Source: a virus. Taken from it: a stretch of 64,000 bases of DNA. The notes beneath the pieces were generated by a model. It was not told the origin of the DNA. It worked only from the letters and a program-made list of their open reading frames with translations, and did no database searches. A program made the position numbers and the translations under genes. Positions 27,870 through 36,831 of this stretch are shown in pieces. The DNA is taken from positions 6,038 through 70,037 of the IMG/VR virus record IMGVR_UViG_3300046808_000337, one strand, 5' to 3'. Within the stretch, counting starts at the first letter, position 1; each line of letters begins with the position of its first letter.

Positions 27870-27965
27870 AGTCAGGTGGCAGAAATGAGTAATTGCAAGT
27901 GTTCTTCAAACGGCAAGTGTACATAGCCTACCTTTTTACAGGTTCGAGTCCTGTCCTGACTACCA
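27870..27965 (+). ncRNA. tRNA-like RNA with non-canonical anticodon arm
   Basis: Acceptor AGTCAGG/CCTGACT followed by ACCA; T arm ACAGG-TTCGAGT-CCTGT; no anticodon stem-loop. Confidence 0.6.
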
Positions 27966-28018: not shown

Positions 28019-28088
28019 GGAGTGATAGCATAGTGGTATGCGTTGGGGTGAAATCCCAAAGAGTTAGGTTCGACTCCTGGTCTCTCCA
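28019..28088 (+). tRNA. tRNA-Phe(GAA)
   Basis: Cloverleaf: GGAGTGA/TCTCTCC (one mismatch), D arm GCAT/ATGC, TTGGG-GTGAAAT-CCCAA, TTCGACT loop. Confidence 0.8.
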
Positions 28089-28094
28089 CAACAT

Positions 28095-28186
28095 AGTCAG
28101 GTGGCGGAATGGTAGACGCGGTGAATGGCAATGTACACACCATGGGTGAGAAACCCTGCTTACAGGTTCGAGTCCTGTCCTGACTA
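28095..28186 (+). ncRNA. tRNA-Leu-like RNA with expanded anticodon loop
   Basis: Same acceptor and T arm as 27870; Leu-type D arm GGCGGAATGGTAGACGC; long variable arm; GGTG-N14-CACC in place of the anticodon arm. Confidence 0.65.
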
Positions 28187-28194
28187 CAAAACAA

Positions 28195-28860: not shown

Positions 28861-28885
28861 AAAAACCGGGAGTTACCCCGGCTTT
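28859..28885. terminator. Terminator between convergent operons
   Basis: A-run, CCGGG/CCCGG stem, then CTTT. Confidence 0.65.
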
Positions 28886-28926
28886 AGTCGTAAATATAAC
28901 GGGCCATCTACACAACCCGTGCATCC

Positions 28927-29187
28927 TTAGCAGTCCCACTTGCGTAAAGCCAGTGCCTTACGTGTAGGCTTGCCGTTTGGTTTCTTCATAGGACCAGGCA
29001 TGCCACCCATCCTAGCACAAAATGACTTCCTCCGGGCCGCAGCCTTAGGCGACTTCTTTGCCTGCTTTGCAGACACTGGGGGCTTGAGGTTGTGGCCCTC
29101 TCGCTTAGCGGAAGCTCTTCCTTTAGCGTTCAATCCTCCTGAGGGGTTCTTTCCCTCCTTACGCTGCCATGCCGGGGACTTTGCCAT
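28927..29187 (-). CDS. Small basic protein (DUF6321-like)
   Basis: AWQRKEGKNP.GGLNAKGRAS...RRKSFCARM...ALRKWDC. Confidence 0.7.
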   Translation of the reverse strand: MAKSPAWQRKEGKNPSGGLNAKGRASAKREGHNLKPPVSAKQAKKSPKAAARRKSFCARMGGMPGPMKKPNGKPTRKALALRKWDC

Positions 29188-29190
29188 CCT

Positions 29191-29349
29191 TTATTTTTTT
29201 TTGGTTTTTTTTGCTGTCTTCTTTGACTCCTTGAAGTCGTTTGCCGTGGGAGCACCTGGTGCACCCGGCTTCCTCATACTCTCGCCTGATCCAGCTGCAA
29301 TCCTCTTGCGCTTGGCGTGAATGTTTGCGTATAGCCCCCTCCTTGCCAT
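29191..29349 (-). CDS. Small basic protein
   Basis: 52 aa MARRGLYANIHAKRKRIAAGSGE.MRKPG..GAPT; true start is 29349 (TAATG coupling). Confidence 0.7.
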   Translation of the reverse strand: MARRGLYANIHAKRKRIAAGSGESMRKPGAPGAPTANDFKESKKTAKKTKKK

Positions 29350-29543
29350 TACTTTTTCTTTTGAATGTTCTTGTAAGTTGGGATCGGAACCGGCTTCTCT
29401 CCGCCAGGCTTCGGCTTGTAGTTCGGTATAGCTACCGGCTTTTCCCCACCAGGCTTCGGCTTGTAGTTGGGAATAGTTGTAGGCTTTTGAGTCGTGCCGA
29501 TCGGCTTTGACTTCGGAGTTGGTTGTCTTTTTATGTTTCTCAT
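29349..29543 (-). CDS. K/P-rich peptide with tandem repeat
   Basis: 64 aa; IPNYKPKPGGEKPV twice. Confidence 0.6.
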   Translation of the reverse strand: MRNIKRQPTPKSKPIGTTQKPTTIPNYKPKPGGEKPVAIPNYKPKPGGEKPVPIPTYKNIQKKK

Positions 29544-29659
29544 CCCTGTCCTCTTGATGGTTTTGTTTTCTTGTCCATGGGAGACTTGCGCTTACACGCC
29601 TTGCCATCCCTTCGCTTGCCAAATGTCGTCTTGGCACCGTTTCCTAGTGACTTTGCCAT
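29540..29659 (-). CDS. 39-aa basic peptide (not in ORF track)
   Basis: MAKSLGNGAKTTFGKRRDGKACKRKSPMDKKTKPSRGQG; coupled on both sides. Confidence 0.6.
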   Translation of the reverse strand: MAKSLGNGAKTTFGKRRDGKACKRKSPMDKKTKPSRGQG

Positions 29660-30030
29660 TATTTTTTCTTTAAGTAGTCAGGCTTAGGTGGCCCAACAAA
29701 CGTATTCTTGGTCGATGGCACAAACGCCTTAGCCTTGTTCTCAGTAAACTCCTTCTCCCGCTTTTCCTTCTGCTTGGCAGACAACACCTCGTTCTTTTCA
29801 CCGCTGGCACCTTTGTTCTTACCGGTAGACCCGCTGCCCTTGTTTGACTGACGACTAGGACCATCTCCGCCACCGTATGCAGGACAGTCCTTGCCCTTCT
29901 CACAGCTAACATCCACGTTGTCCGGATTGTCAGCAGATCCGTTCTTACCCCGTTTCCCCTTCTTGAGGAACTGCCTTACGCCACTCATGCCGTATGCGTT
30001 GTCTCTGTAGTCCTGTGATGCGTAGTCCAT
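29659..30030 (-). CDS. K/G-rich disordered protein
   Basis: MDYASQDYRDNAYG...; start 30030 lies just after the upstream stop. Confidence 0.6.
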   Translation of the reverse strand: MDYASQDYRDNAYGMSGVRQFLKKGKRGKNGSADNPDNVDVSCEKGKDCPAYGGGDGPSRQSNKGSGSTGKNKGASGEKNEVLSAKQKEKREKEFTENKAKAFVPSTKNTFVGPPKPDYLKKK

Positions 30031-30034
30031 AGTA

Positions 30035-30193
30035 TTATTTTTTACAGCCACAATCGTGATCGCCCTTGGCCTCCTTAGCCATACGGGCCTCCATCTCCTC
30101 CTGGGCCATTCTATAGCGGTTCTTTACCATCTGTCTTGCTGGGGTGTATCTGCCAAACATGTTGGCCGTATAGTCCTGCGATGCGTATCTCAT
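30035..30193 (-). CDS. 52-aa peptide (not in ORF track)
   Basis: MRYASQDYTANMFGRY...CGCKK; preceded by promoter TATATTTG (30213-30206). Confidence 0.6.
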   Translation of the reverse strand: MRYASQDYTANMFGRYTPARQMVKNRYRMAQEEMEARMAKEAKGDHDCGCKK

Positions 30194-30239
30194 GGCTTTT
30201 TTTTACAAATATATGCAAGGTCGTCAATTATCCAAATTT

Positions 30240-30267
30240 TAGACATTCCTAGACATTTTTAGACATT
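30240..30267. repeat. Three TAGACATT repeats at 10-bp period
   Basis: Copies at 30240, 30250 and 30260. Confidence 0.75.
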
Positions 30268-30360
30268 TCGTAAACTATCCCGGGTTGGGGTCCCCCCCTA
30301 GTCCCCCCCGCGAGAAAAAATTTCCCGAAGTCGATATGGCAAACGGGGTGGGGTCGAATA

Positions 30361-30376
30361 CGTTCCACGTGGAACA
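30361..30376. promoter_or_regulatory. parS-like palindrome
   Basis: CGTTCCACGTGGAACA, 15/16 identical to TGTTCCACGTGGAACA. Confidence 0.65.
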
Positions 30377-31204
30377 TCGGCACCCGCCTCGCTCGCTTGC
30401 TTGCCTAGGCTCGGGAGAAAGTAAAGTATTATGTACAGCTATAACATAGGGTATTCTTGGTATCCCATCGGTGGACAAAGTAGACTAACATACTGATAAC
30501 CAACCACATACCGCAAGAATAACTTGTAGTGCTACGTTTATGCATGCGGTTATCTATACGAAATGCAGCCCGCTCCCCTGTATTTAACTTATCATTAACA
30601 GGCCTGTGCCGTCTGCCCTGTGGCCCGCGTGTTTAGTTAATGCCCTGTTAATTCGAGGCCTAACATGCTGAGAATCAACTGCTTGGGCCAGATTCTGCCT
30701 TATTTAGAACCATTCCAAATAGCATTTTGAGGGGGCATAGAGGCATTATCTCGGGCTCGGATGTATGTAGATACCACCTAGGGCGAGAAAGTCGATTTAA
30801 AGCAATTTCCGCGTGTTTACAGGGGTTCTAGCAGGCCCGCTCTTTTTGGTTAGGGCAACCTAGCTCGGGAAGGCCTAATGTGCGGGCGCGCATGAGTGCT
30901 TTGTATGCCTATTGGCTAGTTTGTGCCGGTGCTTTGTGTGTCTCTATAGGGATCTATGGGAGGGCCTTGTGTGGGACTGCCCGCGCTCGGGGCTAGGTTT
31001 GCAGTGTTAACTGCTATGAGAACCAATAAGTTAGGTGGGAATTTCCCCAAATATAGGGTATGTTGGCCCCATATCCAAATATACCCTTAACTTTTTTGTA
31101 CACTGATTATCAACACGTTACATTAAAAACATTATGTTATGACATAAAAAGTGTTACTGAAATGTTAATGTCGAGCTCACAGCGAGCAGACCCCCCCATC
31201 TTTG

Positions 31205-31570
31205 CCCTGTTCAACGGAACAACAGCTGTACTGACCATGTATCTACCATACACAGCGCAGTTGCACGGGGGTCGCATCCGAGACAACACGACAACTAGAG
31301 GTTATAGCCACCTAGGCAAGCGAACCAAAAGGTCGCTCATCGGCTCACTAACTGAAAAGGCAGCGCAAGCGGCTGAATGAAAGGGTGTGAGATGCAAAGG
31401 CATACGACAGATAGCGGGAACGTCGATAAAGCCCGCAGTTCTTTGAAGTACTGAGACCATGTGTGCAAAGCACGCCACCGAACAGGTGGGGAAACCGCAG
31501 GGAGGCCGATGACACCCTCTACTAGTTGCGCTGATAGCCGAAAGGACGCGCCATACATGGACTCGCAAGA
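31205..31570 (+). ncRNA. Large structured leader RNA of the early operon
   Basis: Nested long-range helices, several GNRA-type loops, no credible ORF. Confidence 0.55.
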
Positions 31571-31583
31571 CAACAACTAAAAC

Positions 31584-31633
31584 AACAACGCCACCGACGG
31601 GGTGCTCATCTAGGTTCGACTCCTAGCGTTGTT
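31584..31633 (+). ncRNA. tRNA-top-half mimic 1
   Basis: 7-bp AACAACG/CGTTGTT plus CTAGG-TTCGACT-CCTAG. Confidence 0.65.
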
Positions 31634-31657
31634 CTAAACTTATACACAACACAACAC

Positions 31658-32008
31658 ATGGAAACACAGGAATTACTCAAGTCACTTAGCGGCATGCAGG
31701 TGGCTAAATTTGAAGACAACACAATCTACATGACTAACGGCATGGAGGTGCGTCACTACGTCAAACTCAACGAGTGGATAAACTTCGACTCATACGGGCG
31801 GCCCGACGATTTGGCCCTGCAAATGCAGTTGATTGTGCTATTCAACGGCGCACAGGTAATGACATGGGGCGCCGAGACCGAGCTAGACAACGCCTTGCTA
31901 GTGCGTTGGTGGAAACAACACTCGGCCATAGGTAGAAACAAGAGCCAAGAGGTGCAGCAGGACCTAGGCAAGGTCGGCTACACGCTGCTAATGCAGGGCA
32001 TTGACTAG
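31658..32008 (+). CDS. First early gene, hypothetical
   Basis: 116 aa; CAA-rich leader. Confidence 0.65.
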   Translation: METQELLKSLSGMQVAKFEDNTIYMTNGMEVRHYVKLNEWINFDSYGRPDDLALQMQLIVLFNGAQVMTWGAETELDNALLVRWWKQHSAIGRNKSQEVQQDLGKVGYTLLMQGID

Positions 32009-32059
32009 GTAAACTGACGAGTCTTCAATAGACGAAACCGCCTGCGGGCGGTCTTTACC
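32008..32059 (+). ncRNA. Type I hammerhead ribozyme 1
   Basis: GGTAAA-CTGACGA-GTCT/AGAC-GAAA-CCGCC/GGCGG-TC-TTTACC; predicted cut after C32053. Confidence 0.9.
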
Positions 32060-32072
32060 AACACACAACAGC

Positions 32073-32282
32073 ATGAAAAAACGATTCTTTTTCCGCCGCC
32101 CGTCGCAATTCTCATTCGACATGGTGGTGACAATCAACGACGACAGGCACGAAGCCAACTTCCTAGCCTCCATGGTGCGCAAGGGCTACGAGATAGTAGA
32201 CACCGAGACATACCGCGCCGAGTGCGCTATGTTCGCACCATTCAGAAAGACTAGACTATCATACGGCGGACGCAAATTCTAA
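32073..32282 (+). CDS. Early hypothetical protein
   Basis: 69 aa; CAA leader. Confidence 0.6.
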   Translation: MKKRFFFRRPSQFSFDMVVTINDDRHEANFLASMVRKGYEIVDTETYRAECAMFAPFRKTRLSYGGRKF

Positions 32283-32301
32283 CATTAACACACAACATAA
32301 C

Positions 32302-32583
32302 ATGGAAACTACTGAAAAATTCGCTCGCATATGCAGCGCAACAAACGAGGGTATGAATGAGGGCTACCTATTCGAAGAGTCCCTCATGTATTTCATTGAG
32401 CATGAAGACGCCGAACGCTACGCAATTGAGCTAGGCTATGCCGACCTCGACGAGGCATACGACGACGACGCGTACTGCTACACCGAATGGGACGTAGAAG
32501 ACGAGCGCGAATGGTATGAGAAGCATGCCGGCCAATGGTACGAATGCACACAGGACAGCAAGATATTAATCAACAACAACTAG
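32302..32583 (+). CDS. Very acidic early protein
   Basis: 93 aa, D/E/Y-rich; possible DNA mimic (inference). Confidence 0.6.
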   Translation: METTEKFARICSATNEGMNEGYLFEESLMYFIEHEDAERYAIELGYADLDEAYDDDAYCYTEWDVEDEREWYEKHAGQWYECTQDSKILINNN

Positions 32584-32588
32584 TCAGC

Positions 32589-32852
32589 ATGATACACAAC
32601 GAGCACCTACAGAAAGCGGACGAACTATACGAGGTCCGCCACGACAACAACGGCAACGCTATACACGTCTATGTAAAGGACGGCGAGGCTATCGTATTCC
32701 CCTCACTACATGACTTTGTGATGAGGGTATACTACGGACAGGAGGTCGAGCGCTTCTACCTAGACGAGGAAGAGCTGACCGACCTGTATAACGAGAGCGC
32801 ATACGACTACTACACGCTCAAGGCTAAACACGAGGCAATACAGAACAGCTAG
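32589..32852 (+). CDS. Early hypothetical protein
   Basis: MIHNEHLQK...; start adjusted to ATG 32589. Confidence 0.6.
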   Translation: MIHNEHLQKADELYEVRHDNNGNAIHVYVKDGEAIVFPSLHDFVMRVYYGQEVERFYLDEEELTDLYNESAYDYYTLKAKHEAIQNS

Positions 32853-32892
32853 GCATGGTGGCCATGGAGGGGTTCGCTTCCCCTCCCTAGCT
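32847..32892 (+). ncRNA. tRNA-top-half mimic 2
   Basis: 7-bp AGCTAGG/CCTAGCT plus GAGGGG-TTCGCTT-CCCCTC. Confidence 0.55.
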
Positions 32893-32925
32893 CTAATTTA
32901 TTAACAACAATTTATATTCAACACT

Positions 32926-33849
32926 ATGAACAACAATTTCAACCTCGACAGCATGCTGTCAACAATCGCCACAGGCGCTAAGACAATCGAAACCCTCCAA
33001 GCTACAGGCCTCGATTGGCAGGTAAACAAGGTACAACTCTACACACCCGACGGCACACCTGTCGACAGCGCATGGGCCAATCAACGAGCGGACAACGGCG
33101 CTATCCTAGGCGTAATGTCCGAGCAGTACGCAGTCTTTCAGAACGAAGAGTTGGCTGAGCTATGCGAGGCAATCGCAGGCGAGTTTGGCTACACCATCCA
33201 CAAGGGCGGCGCTCTCAACGGCGGCAAGAAGGTCTACCTACAGCTGTCAGCGGGCAGCGTTACAGGTATCGGTGACAACAACGACCGCGTAGAAAAGTAC
33301 GTGACGGCGCTCAACTCATTCGACGGCAGCAGCAGCGTTTGCTTCGGGTCCCTAGGGTACACGATTAGCTGTCAGAACACGTTCTACCGCGCAGCCCGCG
33401 ACAAGGCCATGAGCCGCGTGCGCCACACCTCTAGCATGCGCGACCGAATCGAGGCAGCCAAGCACCAAATCTTGGGTATCATCAAGGCCGACGAGAGCCT
33501 GTACGACACCTTCTTCAAGATGGCCAATGCTCAGATGACCCCCGAGATTGTACGCAGTGTGGTGCAGCAGTTGACCGACGTCGACATTACCAAGACGCCG
33601 AGCAGCATCAAGGCTGACCACAGCGCCCGCAAATTCAACATCGCAAGCGACCTGCTAGACAGCATACGCCGCGAGACTTCATACAAGGGCGGCTCGCTAT
33701 GGGGACTGATGAGCGGGGTTACTCACTACACCACTCACAAAGCCTCCGCTCCTAACCGCGAGAATGGCCGTATCGAGGCTAAGATGACAGGCAACGCAGG
33801 TTCAATGGACGCGCAGGCCTTCGATATCCTAGCCAAGATTGTAGCATAG
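32926..33849 (+). CDS. DUF932/DUF945-family early protein
   Basis: GLDWQV, LGV.S..Y...QN, GALNGGKKVY, NSFDGSS, CQN and SLWGL..GVT.Y.TH motifs. Confidence 0.8.
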   Translation: MNNNFNLDSMLSTIATGAKTIETLQATGLDWQVNKVQLYTPDGTPVDSAWANQRADNGAILGVMSEQYAVFQNEELAELCEAIAGEFGYTIHKGGALNGGKKVYLQLSAGSVTGIGDNNDRVEKYVTALNSFDGSSSVCFGSLGYTISCQNTFYRAARDKAMSRVRHTSSMRDRIEAAKHQILGIIKADESLYDTFFKMANAQMTPEIVRSVVQQLTDVDITKTPSSIKADHSARKFNIASDLLDSIRRETSYKGGSLWGLMSGVTHYTTHKASAPNRENGRIEAKMTGNAGSMDAQAFDILAKIVA

Positions 33850-33908
33850 GTAAACTGATGAGACTTCAGTAGTCGAAACCACGGGGCCCTGTCCCTGTGG
33901 TCTTTACC
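33849..33908 (+). ncRNA. Type I hammerhead ribozyme 2
   Basis: GGTAAA-CTGATGA-GACT/AGTC-GAAA-CCACGGG/CCTGTGG-TC-TTTACC; predicted cut after C33902. Confidence 0.9.
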
Positions 33909-33918
33909 AACAACTTAT

Positions 33919-36831
33919 ATGAACACAATGTACGTCATCAAGATTACGCGCACGACATCGGGAGAGGTGACCCTGCGCAAGGAAGTCAGCGGCTACACTA
34001 GGGCCTACAACCTATTCACGGAGCTATGCGACATGCACGGCTACGACATCCAAGAGAACCCCATGGAGGGCGGCTACCTAGCGGGCGGCCACAGCCACGA
34101 CTTCATCATCGAGCTGTACGAGCCTAGCGACGACAACGAAGAAACTCAATACGAACCCTTTTAACAACACCAAATCATGAAGACTAGACTAACCCTCATC
34201 GCGGTGTTTATCGCGGCCCTATGGCTCGCTTCTGACATCGACAAGCACATGCTGCTGCAAGATTGTGTGCAGCAAACCGACGGCAGCGACGCTGCATGCG
34301 ACAGCTGCTACTACGTAATCTACGGAGCATACCCAACCCACTAAACCCACAGCAACATGGCAAACTACCAATCAGCAATCGACGCTGCAAAGCAGCAGCA
34401 GGCAATCGACGAGGTTACAAACTTCATCGAGTACTTCACGTCCGACGACGACTTCCGCATCATGATGCAGCAGTCTCTACAGGACTACATGAACCACGTT
34501 TGGAAACCATAAACACAACAGCAACATGACAACTCAGCAAATTAAACAGCGCCTCCTGTTCATCATTGAGGACGCAAACAGGCTCATGCAGCACATCGAA
34601 TCGGGCAACGGCATGCAAGACCCTACGGCCTTTGCCGACAGCGGGTGGACTCACCTGTCTAACATTCAGATAGCCGCCGACCCCGAGGACACCGAGTCCG
34701 ACCAATGGAAAAAAGAATCATTAAACTAAACACAACAGCAACAATGACAACTCAGAAACTCACAGCAGACACTATCGACAGACTGATAGGCCGCACCATT
34801 CACAGCGCAGGCGACAATTGGATACAGCTAGACAACGGCATCCGAATCTATCTAGACGACAGCGAAATCGAACACCTTAATTAACAACAGCATGAAACAA
34901 GAGTACATGGGTATCAGCGGCAAGGTTAGCCATGACCCAGAATTAAGCAAGCAGTACAACGCCCTGCTACAGAAGCTAGGCACGGAAGGTATGCTCGTCC
35001 TCATCGAACGATGGATGGACGACAGCGACCTGCAATCAATCATCGCATACGACGACAACTACTAAACACAACAACAACAGCAACATGAAGACCTTATTTC
35101 TATTGGCAGCGCTTGCCATACAACAGCTAACAGCCGACGTTAAATTCCGCGAGATGCAAGACGACGGCACAATCGTGTACGAGGGGCAAGACCCCGACAC
35201 GGGACGAGACTTGTACATGATCATGCTGCCGGACAGCAGCGTGGCCCACTACGCATACCGCGAGGAGGCCATAGAGTACATCAAGACAGGCACATTCAAA
35301 TACAACGACTTCATTAAATAACAACAACATGAGAAAGATTACAGCACAGGCAGTGCAAGCCTTTGAAAATGCAACCCCATTCAAGAACGGCAACACACAG
35401 GTTGAAGTGACACCCAACTGCACAATCTTGAAACTATTTGGCAACCCCATAGCATACCGGTACAACGACCCCGAGCGCACACTCAGCATAACCAACTGCG
35501 GGTGGCCTACAGACACGACGCGAGAGAGACTCAACGGCATAGAAGGCGTGAGTGTATCGCAGTCCGCAGGCAAGTGGTACCTCAACGGCGTTGAGTGGGA
35601 CGGCAATCTAATCGATGTAAACGTAAAACCAATATAACAGCAACATGAACAGACAAGACAGACTCAGAAAGTACGACCGCATTATGTCGGCTGTAGTTGT
35701 AGCAATCGTGCTCACCATGCTCCTAGCATCCTGCACAGCCCCACGGGGCCTTGGCTACCAAGACCACCTGCGCTCAACACCTAGCAACAATTGGGTACGC
35801 CACGACAACGGCGGATGCGGGTGGAACAATTAACATTCACTAACAAGCGGGTGCAGTATGCGGCAGGTATATTGCACCCGCAATCTAAACACTAACAACA
35901 TGAACGAAGAGAAAGTAATCAGCTACATCCAAGAGCAAATCATGAACGAATGGCGCTCGGTAATGAAGTACGAAGACCAACTACGCAACATCGCGTTTCA
36001 CACCGAGGAAGACCACATCATCCACGACTGCATCGCCAACGCGAAGGAACGAATCGAAATGTATACAATAATCCTAAACAAGTTTGAACAATGAGCATCA
36101 ACAACGACGCATGGAAGCTATCCAACCCCGACGACGACGGGCACTACACTGAAGACCACACACCTCGCATTCAATCGTGCATCTACTACAAGTTTATCTC
36201 AGACCACAGGCTATCCAACCGCCCCGTGTACGGGATGTTCACGACCTCCGGTCACGACATCAAGATATGGAACTGGTTCGGCATCGAGACAATCGACATC
36301 GAACCGATCGGTACAGAGGTGGAAGAGATTGAGTCAGAGATATACCGCATCAAACAGAACTACACCGGCTACGAACTGATAGCAAAGGACGAGTTCTTAG
36401 AGGTGTTCAACTCGGTACAGGAACGAATCAATAAACTAGTCAGCCATGAAGCAATGTATTGACAACATAGCATTCGCCCTCATGACGTGGCTCCTAAAGG
36501 ACATCGACAAATGAACATCGACTACCGCGCAGGCGACGAGATTGTTTGCATAAGGGACCACTCACAGGGTGTCGTCAAGAAGGGAGAGATATACACCGCA
36601 CACAAGTTGAATCGCAACGGGTGTGGGTGTATACTCCTTGTTGACGTTGGGTATATATCTGACAGGCCGTTCACTAAGTGTCCTGCCTGTGGAATGAACG
36701 ACGAGAAGACCGACGACGTGTGGTGGATAGACGCTCGCTTGTTCCGGAGACTTCTCACCAAGTCAGAAGAGGAAGACCTCGCTGACGTGCTGGCTGAGGT
36801 GTTCCAAGAGGAACTAATTAGCCTTAATTAA
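33919..36831 (+). other. Array of about 12 small early genes
   Basis: ORFs 33919-34164, 34177-34344, 34357-34512, 34526-34729, 34744-34884, 34892-35065, 35085-35321, 35329-35637, 35645-35833 (lipobox LASC), 35900-36094, 36091-36462 and 36511-36831; most are preceded by a (T)AAACACAACAGCAAC-like leader. Confidence 0.65.

Follow-up and report, generated by a model that had tools for sequence, protein, structure and literature searches.

Why would a phage set tRNA-like structures and self-cleaving ribozymes between its small genes? This question is raised by a stretch of 64,000 nucleotides (hereafter the window), which comprises bases 6038-70037 of the 70,037-base virus record IMGVR_UViG_3300046808_000337, rated 100% complete. 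Near the head of a plus-strand operon two genes, g5 and a gene for a DUF932 protein, are each preceded by a mini-tRNA, i.e. an acceptor stem and a T arm without an anticodon arm, and each end directly in a hammerhead ribozyme. A first-pass annotation had read this arrangement as a repeated cassette of mini-tRNA, open reading frame (ORF) and hammerhead, in which host tRNA-processing enzymes define one end of a message and a ribozyme the other. In related loci we find that the structures are conserved with compensatory changes, that they keep their strand and position, and that the two kinds of element replace one another. With moderate confidence we favour the view that mini-tRNAs and hammerheads are interchangeable RNA-processing modules, placed in the first gaps of an early operon that would be transcribed as one long RNA.

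Four structured elements at gene junctions

Mini-tRNA 1 (31584..31637, plus strand) is made up of an acceptor stem, a D-like hairpin and a T arm (31584-31633), followed by CTAA (31634-31637). Its 7-bp acceptor stem is combined with a 4-bp hairpin that has a 5-nt GG-containing loop, a 5-nt linker, and a T arm with a 5-bp stem and the 7-nt loop TTCGACT; the next ATG lies 24 nt beyond 31633. Mini-tRNA 2 (32847..32896, plus strand; fold at 32847-32892, CTAA at 32893-32896) likewise combines a 7-bp acceptor stem with a small hairpin; it carries the conserved linker CATGGTG, and its T stem is 6 bp long with the loop TTCGCTT. Its next ATG is found 33 nt beyond 32892, and the upstream stop codon TAG (32850-32852) lies inside its acceptor stem. 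For both elements the described fold is the minimum-energy structure calculated by RNAfold.

Hammerhead 1 (32008..32059, plus strand) and hammerhead 2 (33849..33908, plus strand) are of type I, with predicted self-cleavage at 32053/32054 and 33902/33903, respectively; the three-stem fold of hammerhead 1 is again the minimum-energy structure. Both show the core CUGAnGA...GAAA, an NUH triplet (here GUC), three helices and an open stem I. The last base of the TAG that terminates g5 (32008) and the DUF932 gene (33849) is the first base of the respective stem I. Inspection of the sequence, including the two ATGs, thus bore out the first-pass annotation in the location and parts of all four elements: the acceptor stems, the TTCG-type T loops, the single small hairpins, the CTAA trailers, the distances to the following genes and the genes that run directly into a hammerhead.

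The hammerhead core pattern matches the window twice against 0.04 expected matches, and the T-arm motif seven times against 0.88, namely three times in tRNA or tRNA-like genes, twice in the mini-tRNAs and twice inside minus-strand genes. At gathering thresholds Rfam reports only two tRNAs in the whole window, and ARAGORN calls only 28019-28089 and 28095-28187 there, passing over the mini-tRNAs; on 14 related loci it called none of the mini elements either. The Rfam tRNA model (RF00005) does not match the mini-tRNAs even at E up to 10, and Rfam searches of the region and 17 related loci at E up to 10 or 1 returned no known family for them and no other ribozyme class. What the mini-tRNAs have in common with tRNAs is a T arm with a 7-nt loop on which an acceptor stem of 7 bp is stacked; they do not have the cloverleaf with an anticodon arm that tRNA finders recognise.

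The two hammerheads of the window have identical stem I halves (32008-32013/32054-32059 and 33849-33854/33903-33908), and for this reason the 1.85-kb RNA between the two cleavage sites could pair its own ends. This RNA would carry 5'-OH and 2',3'-cyclic phosphate termini, as RNA ligase substrates do. We considered a circular RNA formed in this way; that some relatives have a single hammerhead, and others none, speaks against its having a general role.

The mini-tRNAs form one covarying family

A search with the DUF932 protein yielded ten related IMG/VR loci (86-100% identity), and a sequence pattern derived from mini-tRNA 2 retrieved 19 stretches on 16 contigs (related loci are designated by L numbers). 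The pattern fixes only two G-C pairs and is otherwise blind to pairing. All stems are perfect in the 17 distinct type-A copies thus obtained: 187 of 187 unconstrained pairs are standard, and 8 of the 15 pairs have changed on both sides. When the partner strand was slid by 1-3 columns, pairing in this alignment dropped from 100% to 50-61%.

A covariance model, R1, was built from these 17 copies, which are relatives of mini-tRNA 2. In the 64-kb window it gave exactly two credible matches, mini-tRNA 2 (69.9 bits) and mini-tRNA 1 (23.8 bits, E 3e-4), although the latter was absent from the training set. Therefore, the two mini-tRNAs are variants of one architecture, and the earlier statement that their sequences are unrelated has to be withdrawn. 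In 16 related loci, some of which also contain hammerheads, R1 produced 41 matches at E up to 1, every one of them on the operon strand; structural conservation in homologues, a check named by the first-pass annotation, is thus found. The 28 distinct matches at E up to 0.01 pair in 99.7% of 399 cells, with compensatory changes at 11 of 15 pairs and 53-58% pairing in the slid controls. This alignment was fitted to the model, which favours pairing, whereas the pattern-based count of 187/187 is free of that bias. The wobble cells are G-U in the sense strand only, which points to RNA of the gene strand, and a single cell is unpaired. It is this comparative evidence, rather than any property of a single sequence, that decisively supports the elements over chance.

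Homologues of mini-tRNA 1 occur at the same place in relatives, with compensatory changes in the T stem. The family as a whole falls into three size classes, the smallest of 42-46 nt with a conserved C-W-UGG-W-G mini-hairpin, an intermediate one of 50-59 nt, and a third of 78-81 nt, in which a 4-bp D-like stem with an NGG loop is present and a long arm replaces the anticodon arm. Within the mini-hairpin the change from CA-UGG-UG to CU-UGG-AG is compensatory. The GG loop is probably placed like the D-loop GG that docks on the T loop, so that the elbow of a tRNA would be kept. Every family member is followed by C and then T, in scans that did not demand this.

A third subtype (L012:8786-8831, L015:5311-5356, L025:1285-1330, L026:8490-8538) differs in its trailer, which is CTC instead of CTAA, and its mini-hairpin takes the compensated form CU-UGG-AG. 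Copies of this subtype are found farther into the operon, at up to 93 nt from the next ATG. Some candidates were discarded. The element 'mT51' of L026 (also at L012:8016) is likely a false positive, with the loop TTCGCAA and no CT trailer, and it was missed by R1. Scanner matches on the opposite strand (window 43435-43365, L007 2007-1934, L008 1407-1354, L010 3317-3280) were attributed to chance, since none of them has a trailer and R1 did not recover them at E up to 1.

Mini-tRNAs and hammerheads replace each other

Six distinct complete hammerheads were collected from the window, L001, L004, L008 and L026; a seventh, in L012, is cut by the end of the locus. The six share an invariant core, the GUC triplet and an identical stem I. 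All of their 106 cells are paired, and 5 of 18 pairs, located in stems II and III, show compensatory changes.

The junction 3' of the DUF932 gene holds a hammerhead in the window, L004 and L008, and a mini-tRNA in L001, L002, L003, L005, L006, L007, L009 and L010. As L002/L003 and L006/L009 are near-duplicates, these junctions do not amount to eleven independent cases. In the window, L002 and L010 the end of the DUF932 gene and the leader and start of the next gene are near-identical, and the element alone differs. The same exchange is seen 3' of g5, where the window, L001 and L026 have a hammerhead and L002, L005, L006 and L007 a mini-tRNA. Moreover, the leader and 5' end of g8 (33919..34164, plus strand), the downstream neighbour of hammerhead 2, are kept regardless of which element comes before.

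At the level of whole genomes, that of the window contains two mini-tRNAs and two hammerheads. Five whole relative records (G001-G005, 95-100% complete) have 3, 4, 3, 2 and 3 mini-tRNAs (R1, E up to 0.01) and 0, 0, 0, 0 and 1 hammerheads, respectively; in each whole genome all elements lie within one stretch of a few kb on one strand. Consequently, what varies is the kind of punctuation mark, whereas the number of marks stays roughly constant. The fixed order of mini-tRNA, ORF and hammerhead proposed at the outset is not conserved: relatives show mini-tRNA-gene-mini-tRNA, a hammerhead only, or, in L008, no upstream element, and G001-G004 are devoid of hammerheads. We therefore conclude that the elements punctuate junctions rather than frame cassettes.

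A DNA search of a cultured-phage collection gave no match, and the DUF932 protein found 97 records there, all below 60% identity and mostly from actinophages. In the four of these 97 that were inspected (Bolt007, NTR1, Sour, Mimi) neither a hammerhead nor a mini-tRNA was present near the gene, and thus the elements do not travel with DUF932 in general.

A model for processing at the junctions

The distance from the end of a mini-tRNA to the next ATG is 13-36 nt in 34 of 37 junctions, and that from the end of a hammerhead 13-19 nt in all six. Elements of either kind have their start at the stop codon of the preceding gene. Relative to the end of this codon, the start of hammerheads is at -1, 0 or -5 nt; mini-tRNAs overlap the codon in 20 of 30 junctions (counted after dropping one likely false positive), dividing it as T/AA in 14 cases and as TA/A in two and extending 6 nt into the upstream gene in four, among them the element at 32847 of the window.

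RNase P cleaves acceptor/T-arm minihelices and prefers U at position -1. Among 38 elements this position is U in 25, C in 10 and A in 3, and never G, while position +1 is A in all 38. The discriminator is C, and CCA never follows it. In the crystal structure of Bacillus subtilis RNase Z with tRNA (PMC7479834), contacts are limited to the acceptor stem and the T arm, and CCA after the discriminator is inhibitory to RNase Z. Since the phage's own two tRNA genes lack an encoded CCA, the host must handle CCA-less precursors.

Because two unlike structures swap at one spot and hammerheads cut RNA, we infer that the shared role is the cutting of RNA. A hammerhead would cut itself just 3' of the GUC triplet, whereby the folded ribozyme would remain on the upstream RNA and the next gene would be freed with a leader of 13-19 nt. 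A mini-tRNA would offer its acceptor/T-arm stack and D-loop-like GG to the host enzymes of tRNA maturation. RNase Z would cut behind the discriminator C (predicted sites 31634/31635 for mini-tRNA 1 and 32893/32894 for mini-tRNA 2), and RNase P may cut on the 5' side of the acceptor stem (31583/31584 and 32846/32847). Such cuts would separate the upstream message from the next gene, which would then carry a short, unstructured, A/C-rich leader. The outcome would be gene- or block-sized messages with defined ends, most clearly for the bracketed g5 and DUF932 gene. The two kinds of element would be most alike if the cut were made on the 3' side, each leaving a folded cap upstream and a short leader on the next gene; an RNase P cut, if made, would cost most upstream messages part of their stop codon. 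What survives of the first-pass proposal is thus message segmentation by tRNA-like elements and ribozymes, in as much as both kinds swap between conserved flanks, with the cutting itself deduced from that swap. Its assignment of one enzyme to each end needs qualifying, as at 20 of the 30 junctions the presumed RNase P site is situated within the stop codon of the preceding gene or ahead of it.

Cutting may also depend on translation, because a terminating ribosome would cover the 5' half of an element that starts at the stop codon. A bolder version of this idea, to which we attach a rather low probability, holds that punctuation is coupled to translation in a mitochondria-like manner: a ribosome at the stop would keep the element unfolded, and the cut would be made only once upstream translation falls. 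RNase P would then end messages in U, UA or no stop at all, switching the upstream gene off as the next is freed, and mini-tRNAs to which the host has added CCA would accumulate as decoys for tRNA-directed defences. If this were true, a kit of swappable RNA parts would both time the earliest genes and blunt the host.

Evidence against the model and rival explanations

Several points weigh against the proposed role in RNA processing. Both the occurrence of any cut and the identity of the enzyme are deduced from structure and position. In those 20 of 30 junctions an RNase P cut would take part or all of the upstream stop codon, seemingly to the detriment of the phage unless messages of this kind can be tolerated or the 3' cut is the only one that counts. 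Also, the products would not be chemically equivalent, as RNase Z leaves a 5'-phosphate and a hammerhead a 5'-OH. Positions 54 and 58 of the T loop are non-canonical in some elements (CTCG..., or C/T at 58), and the folding energies of the mini-tRNAs, taken as single sequences, are unexceptional (z -1.58 and -1.94; 15 of 200 and 10 of 200 shuffles fold as well as mini-tRNA 1 and 2, respectively). With the type I hammerhead models (RF00163/RF03152), the ribozymes reach 34.1 and 28.9 bits for RAGATH-1-hammerhead against a gathering threshold of 56.3, and 16.8 bits for Hammerhead_1 against 34; the RAGATH-1 shortfall arises mainly because the 5' hairpin of that model does not form in the window hammerheads. 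Because many rows of the alignments represent close relatives, the counts do not stand for independent events. Finally, RNA data are available as assembled contigs from three riverine metatranscriptomes, which cover small parts of the phage, give no usable depth and by their nature cannot show ends. The untranslated leader upstream of mini-tRNA 1 is best covered (31232-31600), and one contig (31494-31600) spans the predicted RNase P site at 31583/31584 by 17 nt, which constitutes weak, neutral evidence. At 31407-31446 RNA contigs match the phage and diverge on both sides.

Among the alternatives, the elements might act solely as 3'-end caps, with one 3'-side cut or none, whose structure shields the upstream message from 3' exonucleases, so that the separation of cistrons is not the point. 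Both kinds would indeed stay on the upstream RNA after a 3'-side cut, the hammerhead cleaving 6 nt from its own 3' end, and stop codons that overlap the element on its 5' side speak against a productive cut there. For a cap, however, a plain GC hairpin would suffice; the conserved T loop, the D-like GG, A at +1, the discriminator C followed by U and the catalytic core of the hammerhead would all go unexplained. We hold this explanation, which is largely a sub-case of the processing model, to be unlikely. Slightly less probable still is that the released mini-tRNAs are themselves the product and message cutting a by-product. They would then be small, stable mimics of tRNA with a CCA tail, and would tie up or misdirect host factors that bind the elbow or the acceptor end, for example modification enzymes or anti-phage toxins directed at tRNA. 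The D-like hairpin, whose GG loop is conserved through the compensatory change noted above, suggests that the full elbow is kept beyond a minimal cleavage substrate, and the elements lie among the earliest genes, beside the DUF932 gene. Yet a hammerhead releases no such RNA and still replaces a mini-tRNA at the same junction, the number of mini-tRNAs differs widely among three complete relatives and the window, and the acceptor sequences, being free to vary, do not imitate the identity of any particular tRNA.

A selfish function or one at the level of DNA, in which the elements would be boundary sequences favouring the exchange of modules among phages, or else small mobile insertions, and would play no part in RNA, could account for the highly mosaic region, where homology between relatives often breaks exactly at element borders, and for the dispensability of elements at some junctions (L008). 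It is hard to reconcile with covariation that keeps G-U but not A-C and is thus specific to the sense strand, or with 41 of 41 R1 matches on the gene strand. In addition, the shared cores measure only 7-11 nt with differing stems, and the hammerhead core is conserved base for base; we therefore judge such a function very improbable. We give even less credence to transcription terminators or attenuators and to decaying tRNA pseudogenes. A consensus scan does list the T arm of mini-tRNA 1 as terminator-like, but such sites occur at chance level (6 found, 5.2 expected) and most elements have no U run behind them, while pseudogenes would not keep 187 of 187 pairs or a fixed size and position.

The operon and its surroundings

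The phage comes from freshwater, judging by its sequencing runs. Its plus-strand block of small genes extends from about 20.4 to 43 kb of the window and is flanked by long minus-strand ORFs without Pfam matches. Products of the block include a BT4734-like primase, a protein with a DnaA C-terminal domain, NinB, NinG and a Cas4-like exonuclease. The leaders of the operon genes are A/C-rich and have no Shine-Dalgarno sequences, and relatives display a promoter-like motif, TTG/TTTG...TAnnTTTG. The primase domain, the type of leader and this motif point to a host among the Bacteroidota. The sequence at 31197..31204 (plus strand), which matches TAnnTTTG weakly, is the putative -7 box of a promoter of the Bacteroidota type and aligns with TATCTTTG / TATATTTG of relatives; in L011, L012 and L014 a TTG or TTTG precedes the latter boxes by about 20 nt. 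The early operon transcript would start here, as far as can be inferred from the motif.

Between the putative promoter and mini-tRNA 1 lies an untranslated leader of about 370 nt (31212..31583, plus strand). It contains no credible ORF, and blocks of its sequence are kept in all 10 relatives aligned. As a candidate structured RNA the leader gave a weak structural signal (minimum free energy z -0.76, covariation term unfavourable); the fold of its alignment has local hairpins only, with some compensatory pairs. The leader may represent a stable leader RNA that is released by mini-tRNA 1.

Downstream of mini-tRNA 1, g5 (31658..32008, plus strand) encodes 116 amino acids of no known family, with no match in Pfam or PHROGs; its homologues in relatives often have elements on their flanks. 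It is followed by three small plus-strand ORFs (32073-32282, 32302-32583 and 32589-32852) with no element between them, and by the DUF932 gene, g6 (32926..33849, plus strand; 307 amino acids; Pfam PF06067, E 6e-29; phrog_1221, E 3e-42). A scan of 30 ORFs, 27 against Pfam and 17 against PHROGs with 14 common to both, revealed no phage-encoded enzyme of RNA repair or tRNA processing; the only matches were replication and recombination proteins and a metallophosphoesterase.

Upstream of the operon head, the minus strand carries a run of small ORFs rich in basic residues (28900-30200), situated between a two-way terminator-like hairpin (28861-28885) and a gene-free control region of 1.4 kb (30200-31580) with C-runs and repeats such as 'tagacatt'. 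The G+C content here is 0.49-0.53, compared with 0.41-0.47 over most of the remaining window (54-58 kb excepted). As for the tRNA genes, ARAGORN assigns to 28095-28187 a four-base anticodon (gcaa) and no amino acid, and in the Rfam search it reaches 39.4 bits, with 16 nt inserted in the region of the anticodon. The homologous gene of L012 (4120-4194) specifies a normal tRNA of 75 nt, called Cys (aca). A degenerate paralogue of the gene at 28095-28187 lies at 27870-27964; called by neither ARAGORN nor Rfam, it has an identical acceptor stem and T arm and a scrambled middle, and unlike the real tRNAs of the window it encodes CCA.

Comparison with known systems

In animal mitochondria, functional tRNAs between genes direct cuts by RNase P and RNase Z, and frequently no more than U or UA of a stop codon remains at the cut, to be completed by polyadenylation. 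In the phage, U or UA at the cut would likewise arise in 16 of 30 junctions; in contrast, neither punctuation by functional tRNAs nor completion of the stop by polyadenylation is known for the phage. A further parallel is offered by mascRNA and menRNA of MALAT1/NEAT1 (RF01684), in which a tRNA-like element ends a long RNA, much as mini-tRNA 1 follows its untranslated leader. Longer relatives of mini-tRNA 1 match this family weakly, with 30.7 bits (E 0.027, L010:813-870) and 24.8 bits. As these scores lie below the gathering threshold of 42.5, the window elements are unmatched and mascRNA is eukaryotic, the likeness is one of shape only.

Closer to the phage, clustered hammerheads flank single small genes, e.g. 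the anti-restriction gene ardA, in operons of phages and prophages, and in vitro they cleave polycistronic transcripts of about 2 kb, for a purpose that the main text of that study calls unknown (Perreault et al. 2011, PMC3088659). The main-text passages on these hammerheads mention no tRNA-like substitutes; the alternation with a tRNA mimic seen here provides an independent clue to function. The role of bacterial and phage hammerheads has been open since their discovery in 2011, and in the relevant passage of a 2019 review (PMC6765202) message processing by hammerheads is still a suggestion. In full-text literature outside subscription journals and supplements, we found no phage mini-tRNA family, no alternation of such elements with ribozymes and no link of DUF932 with a ribozyme.

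The t-elements of plant mitochondria define mRNA ends (Forner et al. 2007, PMC1920247). According to the passages that describe them, they have a tRNA-like fold without a full cloverleaf, were found through the T-arm motif GGTTCRANYCC and lie at mRNA borders, where their ends coincide with 5' and 3' termini of mRNAs. They are proposed, and for cox1 shown, to direct cuts by RNase Z and/or RNase P (PMC1920247). Some even reside inside reading frames (nad6, ccmC), so that the mRNA ends before the stop, which parallels the stop-codon overlap in the phage (PMC1920247). The mini-tRNAs, too, are tRNA-like folds at gene borders on the transcribed strand. They differ from t-elements, which are organellar, scattered and not interchangeable with ribozymes, in that they form a family of fixed architecture (7-bp acceptor stem, D-like hairpin, T stem of 5-6 bp, discriminator C and next to it U) whose members are grouped where a single operon begins; we claim no sequence relationship.

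Plant mitochondrial t-elements and clustered phage hammerheads are the closest analogues. The natural swap of a hammerhead for a presumed substrate of the cell's tRNA-cutting enzymes between the same two genes argues that the cut itself is selected, and each such hammerhead and mini-tRNA make a directly testable pair of constructs. If the processing model is correct, it would add a compact, uncatalogued family of tRNA mimics (44-81 nt) that annotation pipelines have missed, and it would extend tRNA-punctuated processing from organelles to phages.

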